The notes beneath the pieces were generated by a model. It was given only the letters and a program-made list of their open reading frames with translations, was not told the DNA's origin and did no database searches. DNA of 63,411 nucleotides, counting the filler, from Globobulimina sp. (Eukaryota), in assembly GCA_003354225.1 (NCBI GenBank). It is 17 parts of 17 records of this genome, joined end to end, with 100 filler letters (N's around TTAATTAATTAA, not from the genome) between each part and the next. Parts side by side here need not be neighbours in the genome. Positions count along the whole stretch, not along the records: positions 37,383 to 41,016 come from PIVH01002348.1; 16 more parts are not named here. One strand, written 5' to 3'. This document shows, one piece after another, positions 26,359 through 40,707 of this stretch. The stretch's first letter is position 1, and each line of letters begins with the position of its first letter. The position numbers and the translations under genes were made by a program.

Positions 26359-27717
26359 TTAGAATTCATCGCCTTCGTCACCTTCCATATCATCATCAAC
26401 AGATTCTTGTGCAACTTCTTCATAATCTTTTTCCATCGCAGCTAAATCTTCTCGAGCTTCACCAAATTCACCTTCTTCCATTCCTTCACCAACATACCAA
26501 TGCACAAATGCTCTTTTTGCATACATTAAATCAAATTTATGGTCCATTCTTCCCATAACCTCGGCAATAGCCGTCGTATTCGAGATCATTAAGACTGATC
26601 TTTGTACTTTGGCCAAATCACCACCAGGTACAACAGTGGGCGGTTGGTAGTTAATGCCAACTTTAAATCCGGTCGGGCACCAATCCACAAATCTAATCGT
26701 TCGCTTTGTTTTGACAGTGCCAATTGCAGCATTTACATCTTTTGGGACAACATCGCCACGATACATCATACAGCACGCCATATATTTGCCATGTCGCGGG
26801 TCACATTTTACCATTTGATTAGCGGGTTCAAACACAGAGTTTGTGATTTCAGCAACGGATAATTGTTCATGATATGCGATCTCTGCAGATATAACCGGTG
26901 CAAATGCACACAGTGGGAAATGTATACGTGGATACGGCACTAAATTTGTTTGAAATTCTGTTAAATCCACATTTAATGCGCCATCAAATCTTAATGACGC
27001 AGTCACGGAAGAGATACATTGTGCTAGTAAACGATTTAAATTTGTATAGGTTGGTCGTTCAATGCCTAAATTGCGACGGCAAATGTCATATAATGCTTCA
27101 TTATCGACCATAAAGGCAACATCAGAATGTTCCATCATAGCATGTGCACATAACACGGAATTATAGGGTTCAACCACAGCAGTGGCAATTTGCGGAGATG
27201 GATACACTGCAAACTCAATTTTGGATTTTTTACCATAATCAACGGATAGTCGCTCTAATAATAATGAACCAAAGCCAGAACCTGTGCCGCCGCCAAATGA
27301 ATGGTATATCATAAAGCCTTGTAAACCGGTACAATTATCTGCTAATTTACGTATACGATCTAATACTAAGTCAATTACTTCTTTTCCGATGGTATAATGA
27401 CCTCTGGCATAATTATTTGCGGCATCTTCTTTGCCAGAGATTAATTGTTCGGGATGGAATAATTGCCGATATGTTCCGGTGCGAACCTCGTCAATGACGG
27501 TTGGTTCTAAATCAACCATTACTGTGCGTGGAACATGTTTGCCTGCACCGGTCTCACTAAAAAATGTATTAAATGAGTCATCTCCGCCACCAATTGTTTT
27601 GTCGGAAGGCATTTGGCCATCGGGTTGAATACCATGTTCTAAACAAAATAATTCCCAGCATGCGTTACCTACCTGAACACCTGCTTGGCCAATATGAATT
27701 GTAATACATTCTCTCAT
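26359..27717 (-). CDS. TUBA: Alpha-tubulin, canonical, intronless
   Basis: MRECI, K40 loop [19 protein letters not shown], acidic tail ending EF; 452 aa. Confidence 0.99.
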
Positions 27718-28205
27718 TTTGAATTAATTTAGTTTTTGAAGGTGATAACTTAATTCAAGAGAAAAAAAGGATGAGTGAAGAAAGGTTTGTTGATTTGTTT
27801 GATGTTTTGTTGAAAAAAAGTAAAAAAATGGCGTCAGTACTCAGTAGCTGGTTCCATGGGTAAAAGTTGTGCACCAAGTTATACAAATTGATGGATTTGT
27901 ATTACAGAGTATAGAAACACTGTATACCACCGAGACTTTTCATGAATACCCTCTATGATTACTGAAACATGCTTCATAATATGAAGAACAAATCTGCAAA
28001 ACTTTAAGAAATCAACGTATTAAAAGTTTGTGCACAAAGTTATAAAAATTACACTATTTTTCAAATGGTATTTTTTTGTATACAGTTGAAATGAAACACA
28101 TTACGGTTGAAAATGTTACGGCTGTTTGTGATTAGAATTTTGATATATTTTTGTTTTATTTAAGCTCAGCATACTTAACTTCAAAATTGATTATTTATTT
28201 GAACC

Positions 28206-34464: not shown

Positions 34465-36141
34465 ATGCGTGAAATTATTTCCTTACATGTCGGCCAAGCT
34501 GGAATACAAGTTGGAAGTATGCAAATCATTCATATTATGCATGAAAATAAACCATATATTACGTGACAATAAACCAAAATAACTAGATTCATGTTGGCAA
34601 CTATATGTCACCGAACATGGCATAAATCCCGATGGAACCCTAAATGACCCGAATAGTAAACAACACCAAAAGAAAACCTACGGAGACCCAGCATTTTCCA
34701 CCTTTTTTATAGAAACCGGCGCAGGGAAACATGTGCCACGATGTGTATTTTTAGACTTAGAGCCAACTGTAATTGATCAGGTTCGTAATGGAGAATATAA
34801 AAAATTATTCCATCCCGAACAATTAATATCTGGTAAAGAAGATGCCGCAAATAATTATGCACGCGGTCACTATACCATTGGTAAAGAAATTGTTGATTTA
34901 TGTTTAGATCGCATTCGTCGATTAGCGGACAATTGTTCTGGTTTACAGGGATTTTTATTTTTTAATTCTGTTGGTGGCGGCACTGGATCAGGTATTTTTA
35001 TTTTTTTTTATTTTGCAATCTCATTTTGACACAAAATAACGATTTAATTTGCAACTAGCAATCTGAGAAATGATTTTTGTTCGGTTTTTACCTAACTTTC
35101 ATTGGGTTTGCACGTACTTTTTGTACGTATATAAGGTTTGGGATCGTTATTATTGGAGCGATTATCCGTAGATTACGGCAAAAAATCGAAATTAGGTTTT
35201 ACAGTTTTCCCATCGCCGCAAGTATCCACCACAGTGGTCGAGCCATATAATTCTGTGTTATCCACCCATTCATTATTAGAACACACAGATGTCGCTGTTA
35301 TGTTGGATAACGAAGCTATTTACGACATTTGTAAAAATTCATTGGATATCGAACGGCCAAAATATGACAATTTAAACAGGTTTGCAATGCACACACATAT
35401 CCGAGTTGTTATATATATATTTATTGTAATATGATGTAATAATAATAAAAAAAATAAATATATTTTAGATTGATTGCACAAACCATCTCATCGTTAACAG
35501 CTTCGTTGCGATTTGAAGGTGCCCTAAATGTGGACATAAATGAGTTCCAAACGAATTTAGTCCCTTATCCACGTATACATTTTATGTTATCTTCGTACGC
35601 TCCGATCATAACGCCCTCGAAGGCGCGTCACGAGCAAATGAGTGTGAATGAGATCACGACCCAAGCATTCGAGCCCCGCTCTATGATGGCCAAATGCGAC
35701 CCGCGAATGGGCAAATATATGGCCACCTGCTTAATGTATCGCGGTGACGTAGTTCCTACGGAAGTGTCTGCCGCGGTGTCTATGATTAAGACGAAGCGAA
35801 CCATCCAGTTTGTGGATTGGTGTCCGACTGGTTTTAAAGTGGGCATTAATTATCAGAAACCATCAGTAGTACCAAACGGTAATTTAGCACAAGTCTCGAG
35901 AGCAGTTTGCATGATTTCAAATTCGACCGCCATTGCAGAGGTTTTCAGTCGCATTGATCATAAATTTGATATGATGTACGCAAAGAGAGCATTCGTGCAT
36001 TGGTATGTCGGCGAAGGAATGGAGGAAGGCGAATTTTCAGAGGCTAGAGAGGATTTGGCTGCGTTGGAAAAGGATTATGAAGAAGTTGGAGCAGATTCGA
36101 TGGATCCTGATTATGATGAAAATGATGATGATCATTATTAA
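34465..36141 (+). CDS. TUBA: Alpha-tubulin paralogue with three introns (34517-34586, 34992-35135, 35380-35468)
   Basis: Spliced product [21 protein letters not shown]...GGGTGSG...[23 protein letters not shown]...Y; all three GT-AG junctions keep frame. Confidence 0.97.
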
Positions 36142-37382: not shown

Positions 37383-37834
37383 GCCTCTTCAGCTTTGACT
37401 ATGAATAATACTTTGGCGTATTTTACAAATTCACGTTTGTCATCGCTCGATTGTCGGACGACAGTGACGTCACTGACAAATTTGTTTATTTCTCCCGCAA
37501 TTTGGAGGTCTATAACATTCGCCAAAAGACTAGCAAATCCATATTGGCTCATATCACTCGCTCTTTTTGCTTTGATTATCAGTTGGATTTCGTGCATTGT
37601 TTGCGTCGTATCGTGATAATCTAAAAAAGTTCTGACATACATCGCATTTTCGGCATAACATAATATAATTTGTTCCATGTCTCGCGCAGAAAAACCAAGA
37701 ATATTTTCAGTGATTACATAGTTATCACGACATTGAATAAAATCTAATTGCGCTCGACTTAATACTTTGTTAGCATTCTTAAAGTCTGCCATTCTTATTG
37801 CGATATTGCGTATGAATCTAATTATTACAATCAC
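37383..37834 (-). CDS. Hypothetical protein fragment
   Basis: Open frame to contig edge; no motif recognised. Confidence 0.4.
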
Positions 37835-37945
37835 CTATACTTCAAAAAATAAATTACTTTGTTTGTGGTCGAATGTTGCTGATTTGATCTAATAGTTTGT
37901 GTTCACAATTGAACTTTTGACTTTTGTTTTGTTCTCTATGCTTAG

Positions 37946-39307
37946 GGTTTATACCAAAAAAAATGTGTCTTTGAAGATCTTGCCGTCGATATATTTGAAT
38001 GTGCTGCTTTATCACCAATGTTACCAGAAATGTATGGAGCAAATCCCAATTTAAAATCACCCAATTTATACACACCGTTTTTGTGTGCGTGTTATCACGG
38101 AGACTTAGAATCTGTTCGGAGATTAATAGAGTTTGATGAAAAGGTATTGTTGGATAAACGGTTCGGAGCAAACGGAACAACAATTGCAGTACAAAAAAGG
38201 CATCAAGAGATTGTTGATTATTTGCATAAAGCTCATGGTCTACGAGAAACATTAGAAGATTATGGGAGTTTGCCAGTAACAAAATTATTATTTTTAGGGA
38301 CGTCTAATTGTGGTAAATCAACATTTTTCAAACAATTAAGAACTTTGCATGGAACGGGGTATGCAGATAAAGATAGATTGAAGTTTAAAGATCATATATT
38401 TTTCCAAATTGTTGAGCAAATGAGATTGTGTTTGGAATGTATAGAGGATTTAAAAGAAGAAGAATCCGAATATAAAGATATTGAATTGTCTGCCTCTGGT
38501 AAAGAGGCTGTAGATATTTTGCAAAGTGCGCCAACATTGAAAGTTAATTTGTATATTCGTATACAATTATAATCAATAAAATATATCTGTAATTAGGTAA
38601 CCCCACAAATTGCAAATGTAATAGAAACATTATGGAAGGAAGAGGCGATTCGGTTAATTTATGATTTAAGAGCAACAATGAAAATTGACGATTCTTCCGC
38701 TTATTTCTGGGATGAAGTACGTAGAATTGCTGCAAATGAGTATATTCCAAATGAGAGAGACATATTAATGGTTAGATATAGAACAACAGGTATAATTGAG
38801 CAAAAATTTGAGATTAAAAACAATGTATTTCATGTGTTTGATGTTGGCGGAGTGAAGTCAGAGAGAAAAAAATGGATTCATTGTTTTGAATCGGTGACTG
38901 CTGTAATATTTGTAGCATCCTTATCTTGTTTCGATGAAGGAATGTTTGAAGATGAAGAGAAAAATTCTATGGTTGATCAAATTGAATTATTCGACAAAAT
39001 CTGTAATAATGATTGGTTTAAAGACAGTTCAATGATATTATTTTTAAATAAAACAGATTTATTTGCAGAGAAAATCCAAACAATTCCAATTACTGTCTGT
39101 CCTGCATTTGAATCTTTTGATGGTGATACAAAATCATACGACGAAACTACTAAATATATTAAAGGAATATTTGAATCGCGTACATCTACAAAAAAAATAT
39201 TTACACATTTCACATGTGCTGCTGATACAAATCAAGTTGAAAAAGTATTTAATGATATTACCACTGTCATTTTTAATGCTTCATTGGTACAAAATAAAAT
39301 TATATGA
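37946..39307 (+). CDS. Ankyrin repeat - heterotrimeric G-protein alpha subunit fusion (intron 38543-38596); 5' end uncertain
   Basis: GANPN...TPFLCACYHGDLESVRRLIE...IAV.K.H.EIVDYL contiguous with KLLFLGTSNCGKST, RYRTTGI, DVGGVKSERKKW, FLNKTD, TCA. Confidence 0.9.
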
Positions 39308-39400
39308 AACACTTATATAAATATTATGCTTTGGTTCTGTCATTTTAATTTCATCTCACTTGCTCAACAATTTTACTCTCACAACACTAGCTCAAAAAGC

Positions 39401-40707
39401 ATGGCTCACTGTGGAAGCATTTCGTTGCGACAATATGTGATGCCAACATTTAGTTTATTATACATCGTATTTGCGACATTGTTACCAATTTGGAATATGC
39501 GATTTATCGGAATCCAAGGCAACATATCACACCATTTCCCACACCCATTCTCATTGATATTCATTGAATTTCTCTGTTCGACCTTTATATTTTGCATTTT
39601 AAACATGATTCAGACATTCATTATGCCGCACTTTGCAGCAATGTTAGCAGTCGACACTGCACACTCAATATTCAAAGTGAATAATTCTCAAAAGCAAACA
39701 CTTGCATTTTATGGTGCGGATGGAACAGGAATACGAAGGCCCGGTTTGTTCCAAGCTGTCGATTTCAACAAAACAGAGACACTCAATCTTGATTTTGAAA
39801 CCGTCCAAACCCAAACAGATCACACTGCGGCGGCGGCCAATGACAGCTTAATCAGCGGAATGAGCCAAATCACTGCATTGTTTACAATGTTTTATCTGCA
39901 GAAAAACACAAAAACGTATTTGAGACATTATTTCTGACCGCACCTGTTTCTGAAATATATATTGGTATCCTCGTATCAGTGGTCATTCATTCTTTTTACG
40001 TCTTTTCTTTGATTGCGTGTCTGTCCATAATGACCATTCTGTCCCTATCCATATTATATGAGTTTTCTGTGGTGACCCACGCCATTTTATATTTTAGTTT
40101 TGTTGATTCCAAATTGGAAATATATCATATCATCGGCTTAACGTGTGGCTATATCTCATGTTTCATGTATTTAATTGTGAGATTTGTAAACAATAAAAGA
40201 CATTCGAGGTTGCCTTGGAATGAATTTTTTATTCGTCAGGAAAGGATAAATTCGAATGAATCATTCAACACAATTTTATCGACGCCCATTGCAAACAATC
40301 TGTCACCGAAAACAAATATTTTCAAAGTGAATTTATTCTCGCCACCTTTTAACAAATTATCAGCGCAAAATCAACGCACTTTAAAGGAGTGCAGGAATGA
40401 GCAGGACGATGACGACTCCATTTTGTCAGTCTCCACTCATGAATACAAAAGCAAGTCGGATAAAAGTAAGACGTTTACGGTGGAATATACGCCAACGGAG
40501 GCAATACAGGAAAGGTTTGATGGTCCAAATATGCATAATAATAGGTTTGGATTACCAGGATATATTATATTGCCACAGCAACAACCGGAAGATGATGATT
40601 TATTGCATACCAATTTGATAAATGATAATATAAATCAACATCAAAAACGAAAAGATAAAAACTTAAATAAAATAAAAATACTCGACAATATTAGTGACCT
40701 TATATGA
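39401..40707 (+). CDS. Divergent DMT/triose-phosphate-transporter-like membrane protein with apparent frameshift near 39910
   Basis: N-terminal LYIVFATLLPIWN...FPHPFSLIFIEF pattern; multiple TMs continue in the frame of ORF 39979. Confidence 0.45.

Follow-up and report, generated by a model that had tools for sequence, protein, structure and literature searches.

A predicted ankyrin-Gα fusion gene of Globobulimina lacks the catalytic glutamine and may encode a GTP-locked Gα

The GTPase of the Gα subunit is the textbook timer of receptor signalling, and loss of its catalytic glutamine is the classic oncogenic, constitutively activating lesion: hydrophobic replacement of this residue, as in Giα1 Q204L or Gs Q227L, blocks GTP hydrolysis, and Giα1 G42V is a further GTPase-deficient mutant. 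The lipidated N-terminal helix of Gα serves as membrane anchor, Gβγ contact and receptor contact, and N-terminally truncated Gα fails to bind Gβγ; the C-terminal end of helix α5 is the receptor-coupling tail, switch II and helix α3 make up the face for effectors, regulators of G-protein signalling (RGS) and Gβ, and the G4 box, NKxD, sets guanine specificity. The plant proteins XLG1-3 have a large N-terminal extension followed by a Gα-like domain whose catalytic residues are impaired, and stand outside the classical receptor-driven cycle; their extension is Cys-rich and bears a nuclear localisation signal, and their G-domain, strongly diverged, still binds Gβγ. Rap GTPases work without the glutamine, and RapGAP supplies an asparagine. 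Here we describe a gene of Globobulimina sp. (assembly GCA_003354225.1) whose predicted product joins two ankyrin repeats to a Gα with valine at the place of the catalytic glutamine. It lies in a stretch of 63,411 nucleotides, the whole of which we call the window and along which all positions are counted. With a probability of roughly one half, we read the product as a hydrolysis-impaired, GTP-locked Gα that would be uncoupled from receptor and Gβγ and placed by its ankyrin module.

The gene, on a 3.6-kb contig (window 37383-41016), is made of two exons. Frame +1 is open at 37946-38572 and 38597-39307, and removal of the intron joins ...SAPTLK to VTPQIANVIETLWKEE..., which leaves the translation gapless against canonical relatives across SAPTLK/VTPQIA (SAATLQVTPQIADAIETLWKEE in P0007). 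We refer to the translations of exons 1 and 2 as P0001 and P0002; in P0001 the ankyrin match and the start of Gα share one unbroken open reading frame (ORF). The first in-frame ATG stands at 38018, not at 37946, and gives a product of 411 residues. Among contigs from the public runs compared here (X1, X2, X6 and X7), one of X7 matches exactly from 38597 onwards with 8 unmatched letters in front, which at most hints at splicing, or at an intron that has diverged. The features of the gene are the following:

37946..38017 (+): open in-frame stretch 5' of the first ATG, open from the TAG at 37943-37945, with no in-frame ATG before 38018
38018..38542 (+): exon 1 from the first ATG, with ankyrin module, linker, P-loop and start of the helical domain
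38027..38227 (+): short leading helix followed by two ankyrin repeats (Pfam Ank_2, P0001 residues 28-94, E 5.7e-7)
38240..38281 (+): linker LRETLEDYGSLPVT, 14 residues from the last ankyrin helix to strand β1, in place of the canonical N-terminal helix
38297-38323 (+): P-loop GTSNCGKST, where GSGGSGKST is typical of the lineage
38543..38596 (+): intron in the helical domain, 54 nt, GT..AG, phase 0, with an in-frame TAA inside
38597..39307 (+): exon 2, with the remaining helical domain, switches I-III, G4, G5, helix α5 and stop
38765-38794 (+): switch I LMVRYRTTGI, with the catalytic Arg codon (38774-38776) and the Mg-binding Thr retained
38840-38875 (+): switch II DVGGVKSERKKW, with the Val codon GTG at 38852-38854 in place of the catalytic Gln
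39047-39058 (+): G4 box NKTD, canonically NKKD in the lineage
39212-39226 (+): G5 box TCAAD
39275..39304 (+): C-terminal tail NASLVQNKII, with A406V, G408N, G409K and L410I at otherwise invariant positions
39305-39307 (+): stop codon TGA

On P0001, Pfam scores Ank_2 at 30.5 bits (gathering cut-off 27.3), Ank at 22.3 bits (21.1) and, over residues 105-177, the Gα profile PF00503 at 56.7 bits (48.8). Exon 2 scores 267.8 bits against the same profile at the same cut-off of 48.8 (E 1.8e-79), and the profile is covered at positions 20-87 by exon 1 and at 109-333 of 333 by exon 2, which takes in the Ras-like and helical domains. An AlphaFold model of the exon 1 module alone folds into a leading helix and two helix pairs with a predicted local distance difference test score (pLDDT) of 81-94, and the linker and P-loop stay below 50, as expected for a fragment. 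Foldseek returned no match to this model in the PDB at E≤0.001; ankyrin proteins fill its top rows, none of them better than E 8e-3, and the closest Atlas clusters to the module are ankyrin clusters. A sequence-only reading of this DNA had proposed ankyrin repeats running within one exon into a complete Gα. The junction does lie within one exon, and the GTPase and helical domains are complete; the single-exon picture gives way to the intron at 38543-38596, and the completeness to an N-terminal helix that is wholly absent. That same reading had pointed to the lipid anchors that the N-terminal helix of Gα normally carries, and these are missing here: homology to canonical Gα begins only at KLLFLG, and the protein starts MLPEMY, without Gly2/Cys3, a lipidation motif or an N-terminal amphipathic helix. 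The close canonical relatives among which it nests are of the MGCC type and all begin MGC.., every one of them with the helix (MGCC...).

The nucleotide- and Mg-binding boxes are all in place (GTSNCGKST, RTTG, DVGG, NKTD and TCAAD), and every motif that the sequence-only reading quoted, from the P-loop through switch I Arg, switch II and NKxD to TCA, is present in the translations. The catalytic pair is incomplete: the switch I Arg is retained, and the switch II Gln is Val. Exon 2 aligns end to end with PDB chains of Giα1 (E ~1e-67), the top-scoring of which is the Q204L mutant 1GIL, and the valine aligns with Gln204, as the lost glutamine of the sequence-only reading would have it. The rest of switch II is identical to the canonical foraminiferan form, DVGGQKSERKKW, and switch II and helix α3 are essentially canonical. 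A second departure sits in the P-loop, where Ser occupies the position equivalent to Ras Gly12.

Could the fusion be an assembly artefact, a chimera of an ankyrin gene and a Gα gene? The contig is only 3.6 kb long and the assembly very fragmented, which would favour an error of this kind, and yet this explanation can be regarded as effectively refuted. X2 record 12 (417 nt) matches window 38062-38478 letter for letter and takes in the linker and the P-loop along with both ankyrin repeats; a diverged contig from another study and under another organism label (X6 record 17; 217 nt, 18 differences) bridges 38131-38347; and a homologous junction, at near-constant spacing, occurs in seven database proteins. 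The ankyrin/Gα junction is genuine. The valine codon stands as well: X1 contigs cover 38852-38854 without a difference (X2 does not reach the codon), the X6/X7 relatives read A at 38852, hence ATG (Met), and CAG or CAA is found in none. As an observation in its own right, the relative in X6/X7, ~92% identical and under another organism label, can be followed over window 38131-38882; it keeps the junction and has Met for the Gln and Asn for the catalytic Arg.

The architecture is not confined to this contig. An exhaustive HMMER search, run with the translated exon 1 against 1.84 billion representatives, gave 2478 matches at E≤1e-3; among the best 150 of these, the Gα profile is found in 44, the ankyrin module in 93, and both in seven (P0038, P0043, P0050, P0051, P0064, P0068 and P0080). 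In each of the seven the ankyrin module lies directly upstream of a Gα that starts at profile positions 11-31, and which thus has no N-terminal helix; by Pfam, Ank and Gα occur together in six of 14 proteins scanned. P0051 comes from EukProt, and P0064 and P0068 from ENA contigs of 3.4-3.5 kb. An alignment of the module from these seven and from the Globobulimina protein (A1) has 18 invariant columns at 30-52% identity to the latter, which carries the conserved module (..Y..P.L.. FLCA.YHG .. L .. G.N .. A .. L .. K...G....GK.T), and the distance between the last ankyrin helix and the P-loop hardly varies. P0043 is the closest (52%) and has the same Ser-Asn state of the P-loop (GSSNSGKST). P0038, P0051 and P0064 place two or more ankyrin modules behind 2-3 hydrophobic segments; the Globobulimina protein has one module and, like P0080, no hydrophobic segment outside the G-domain core.

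Some Gα proteins are tethered by membrane segments instead (TM-Gα: P0105, P0115 and P0129). P0129 (516 aa) has seven hydrophobic segments, and P0105 (1499 aa) five, before a Gα without the N-terminal helix; both are candidates for direct fusions of a membrane protein with Gα, and P0129 could be a seven-transmembrane Gα. Among the tethered Gα with readable switch regions, the Globobulimina gene included, a catalytic residue is missing in five of five: Gln is Val in the Globobulimina gene and P0051, Arg is Asn in P0080 and P0050, and Arg is Ala in P0105. Such a loss is thus the rule among related tethered Gα, which is consistent with what the sequence-only reading had inferred from this one gene; the architecture and the Gln-to-Val change, for which it had suggested a search of Rhizaria proteomes, recur in the seven database proteins and in P0051, respectively. 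Where switch II can be read in the database proteins, 48 of 52 keep the glutamine, the exceptions being P0008, P0051, P0209 and P0215. Beside these tethered proteins stand others with no ankyrin module: P0008, which groups as sister with P0007, a canonical protein of that same source, has Arg to Tyr and Gln to Arg; P0209 has Arg to Tyr, Gln to Asp and a degenerate P-loop; P0215 has Gln to Thr; and P0145 has Arg to His. P0106 (654 aa) and P0110 (593 aa) each contain two complete tandem Gα domains. The Globobulimina gene belongs to a small, apparently undescribed family of tethered Gα. No account of the architecture came up among the full-text search listings on ankyrin and Gα in foraminifera, Reticulomyxa or Rhizaria. 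The portions consulted of de Mendoza et al. 2014 (PMC3971589) report lineage-specific Gα expansions, including in the rhizarian Bigelowiella, and mention ankyrin repeats only in RGS proteins.

Where did the Gα part come from? Residues 86-411 are 72-77% identical to the MGCC-type Gα P0006, P0010, P0003, P0009 and P0007, and only 42% and 30% identical to P0080 and P0051. P0009, from the foraminiferan genus Ammonia, is the closest named relative, in keeping with the rhizarian affinity that had been guessed from the sequence. In maximum-likelihood trees the protein nests in the canonical clade, with a Shimodaira-Hasegawa-like approximate likelihood ratio (SH-aLRT) support of 96-97, on an end branch of 0.27 that is ~4-20 times longer than those of the canonical members (0.013-0.072); P0080 and P0050 form a clade of their own, and P0051, whose Gα part is ~30% identical to the Globobulimina protein's clade, groups with the Gln-bearing P0204 and P0205 (support 100; 70.6% and 68.5% identity). 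Monophyly of the four ankyrin-Gα G-domains is rejected (delta lnL 212.6; p of the approximately unbiased test, p-AU, 4.8e-66), the four forced into one clade having been named after the first tree was seen. Since the G-domains are polyphyletic, a homologous ankyrin module is found on at least three separate Gα lineages, owing either to repeated grafts or to gene conversion by canonical paralogues. By the same trees Gln to Val arose at least twice, and the Globobulimina gene is best described as a duplicate of a canonical foraminiferan Gα whose N-terminal helix was replaced by a two-repeat ankyrin module.

A long branch is also what a dying gene would show, and the changes themselves need to be weighed. 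Thirteen canonical sequences agree without exception at 168 alignment columns; of these the Globobulimina protein has changed 24, the canonical members 0-1, and P0195, an ordinary long-branch paralogue, 4; the degenerate paralogue P0008 has changed 23. The 24 include a run of four in the P-loop, the catalytic Gln, one position in NKxD and four of the last six residues of the tail; most of the others are conservative (L/M, V/I, Y/F, T/S). To us the changes look targeted, with clusters at the P-loop, the catalytic Gln and the receptor-binding tail. The last of these, like the intron and the family context, goes beyond what the sequence-only reading had seen.

Several observations weigh against a functional, GTP-locked protein. 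Novel residues make up 14.3% of formerly invariant and 9.2% of variable columns, unlike P0195 (2.4% and 11.1%), such that constraint looks relaxed rather than shifted. X6 record 19 also lacks the catalytic Arg (AGA to AAC), an adjacent Arg has changed too, and its 16 listed differences comprise 12 non-synonymous and 4 synonymous ones, near neutral for a switch region. The ORF head has no start codon, the first in-frame ATG coming 24 codons in; the alignment with P0043 reaches back to ~37994, into the stretch upstream of that ATG, and 37946..38017 may be either a remnant of an ORF that was once longer or coding sequence entered from a mini-exon not seen here. None of the public runs listed is on record as RNA. 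Finally, the tethered family is small: beyond the members of A1, no further relative came from the named protein sources or from JGI metagenome contigs. There, a word-indexed protein search with P0001 at 'longer' lengths gave 34 matches among 1141 candidates, none with Ank and Gα; one with P0001 region 20-135 at 'near' lengths gave 13 candidates, none significant; one with A1 gave 52 matches among 8000 candidates, the only ankyrin-Gα being three A1 members; and the JGI contigs, searched with A1, gave 58 pattern matches, none confirmed.

Much of this would fit a young, decaying or functionless copy: a 5'-truncated chimeric duplicate, born of recombination between an ankyrin-Gα and a canonical gene, now drifting, with the catalytic changes as early damage. 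The missing ATG at the ORF head, the near-equality of 24 changed columns with the 23 of degenerate P0008, the long end branch, and an X6 relative with 12 non-synonymous differences to 4 and the Arg gone would all follow. We nevertheless consider decay unlikely. All 411 codons and the precise GT..AG intron are intact, although 5.7% of random single substitutions in the coding sequence would create a stop, which makes the chance of finding none 0.029 after 60 neutral substitutions and 0.009 after 80, indels not counted. P0043, at 52% identity, shares the Ser-Asn state of the P-loop, which speaks for long persistence of this type of gene; the radical changes at invariant sites fall at three functional interfaces, the rest being mostly conservative; and the same architecture with the same kind of catalytic loss is found in independent lineages. 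Taking the intact ORF and intron, the low chance of escaping a stop, the persisting homologue and the recurring architecture together, the gene is probably live.

What, then, might a live gene of this kind encode? In the GTP-locked reading, the protein would most likely load GTP, as it retains the binding residues GK(S/T), switch I Thr, DxxG, NKxD and TCA. Hydrolysis would be disabled by two replacements, that of the switch II Gln by Val and that of the Gly equivalent to Ras Gly12 by Ser; the GTP conformation would persist as a long-lived or constitutive 'on' form, with no reset by intrinsic or RGS-assisted hydrolysis. With its receptor-binding tail rewritten, the protein would not cycle through a complex with receptor and Gβγ, and it would still present the canonical switch II/α3 face to effectors and regulators. 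Its location would be set by whatever the ankyrin repeats bind, and not by lipids, Gβγ or a receptor. We infer GTP binding, absent hydrolysis, lost coupling to Gβγ and receptor, and ankyrin targeting from sequence, with the mutants Q204L, Q227L and G42V and the N-terminal truncation as the known cases on which the GTP-locked, Gβγ-free state is modelled.

The same retained residues could, however, serve a switch that still cycles. Hydrolysis might, like that of Rap, depend fully on a partner that gives the missing catalytic residue in trans, one which the ankyrin module could bring in. All nucleotide-binding motifs and the switch I Arg and Thr would have a purpose in such a scheme, and it would suit a family that loses Arg or Gln but, among the database members readable at the two positions, never the pair. 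Set against this, the X6 relative appears to lack both residues, and the P-loop Gly to Ser would also be expected to hinder assisted hydrolysis, by analogy with Ras G12 mutants. No candidate partner is known, and the genes beside this one on the contig fall into no recognisable family. We hold partner-dependent hydrolysis to be distinctly unlikely. The relaxed constraint at formerly invariant sites, together with an N-terminal extension and impaired catalytic residues that parallel XLG, could point further still, to a nucleotide-independent scaffold or pseudo-GTPase in which the Gα fold is a binding surface only. That G1, G3 (DxxG), G4 and G5 are intact, and that the domain keeps 72-77% identity to working Gα when XLG G-domains are far more diverged, makes a scaffold very unlikely in our view.

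If we return to the GTP-locked Gα and look across the family, a wider picture can be drawn, more tentatively. Foraminifera may possess a class of hard-wired Gα in which a shared ankyrin module, often behind membrane segments, was grafted repeatedly onto Gα of different subfamilies and the GTPase timer disabled each time: receptor-less, Gβγ-less, self-anchored, and permanently or partner-dependently 'on', with the Globobulimina gene as its soluble and most canonical-looking member. Were this so, the protein could compete with ordinary Gα for effectors. A lesion known from disease, the loss of Gln, or else the absence of the partner Arg, is here the natural and recurrent state of a Gα family with ankyrin or membrane tethers, and the eukaryotic lineage in which the family occurs is large and has been little studied. 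Should its proteins prove to be expressed and GTP-locked, heterotrimeric-type Gα would have been repurposed as receptor-independent modules outside plants; natural 'always-on' Gα at 72-77% identity to working ones would be at hand, suited to structure-function comparison; and a hotspot of domain shuffling in foraminiferan signalling would come to light.

The surroundings of the gene can be told briefly. The window (GC content 34%) is 17 contigs set end to end in decreasing order of size, from 3641 down to ~3630 bp, with spacers N44-TTAATTAATTAA-N44 between them; genes on different pieces are therefore not neighbours. On the contig of the fusion gene, a divergent ORF at 37383-37795 (-), with its ATG at 37793 and at least 137 codons, runs off the contig end and has no Pfam family above threshold; it leaves room for 5' exons of only ~150 bp. 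We consider it less likely that an exon further upstream adds membrane segments like those of P0038 and P0051, given this narrow room and, by eye, no ATG with a donor in a compatible frame. Downstream, two ORFs in overlapping frames at 39398-40704 (+), with five predicted hydrophobic segments and no Pfam family, are probably a spliced gene for a multi-pass membrane protein. A functional link between these and the fusion gene was considered and dropped: there is no family match, and nothing ties them together. On separate contigs, ORFs at 26362-27723 (-) and 34583-36138 (+), one of them split, look tubulin-like by eye from the ORF list.

How does this gene compare, in the end, with the systems we know? 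With canonical Gα (PF00503; Giα1 1GIA and 1GP2; the foraminiferan P0003-P0010) it shares a Ras-like and a helical domain and five correctly placed G boxes; it differs from them in having two ankyrin repeats where the N-terminal helix and Met-Gly-Cys motif should be, in Gln to Val, in a P-loop changed from SGGS to TSNC and in its altered tail. The GTPase-deficient mutants (Q204L, as in 1GIL; Gs Q227L; Giα1 G42V) have in common with it a hydrophobic residue at the Gln or a non-Gly residue at the Ras Gly12 equivalent, yet those are laboratory or oncogenic point mutants, and here both changes occur in a natural gene, alongside the loss of the N-terminal helix. Vertebrate Gz, the slowest Gα GTPase, has Thr-Ser-Asn at the same three P-loop positions, but is otherwise an ordinary lipidated subunit that couples to receptors and Gβγ. 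From XLG it is set apart by an N-terminus that is ankyrin by Pfam, fold and Atlas, unlike the XLG extension described above, and the two are not known to share sequence kinship beyond the Gα fold. Its nearest likeness is to the unnamed ankyrin- and membrane-tethered Gα, with which it shares a homologous module at near-constant distance from the P-loop and the loss of a catalytic Arg or Gln wherever the positions are readable. Even among these it differs from P0038, P0051 and P0064, with their two or more modules and 2-3 hydrophobic segments, in carrying one module and no membrane segment, and the Gα parts of this tethered family belong to different Gα lineages.

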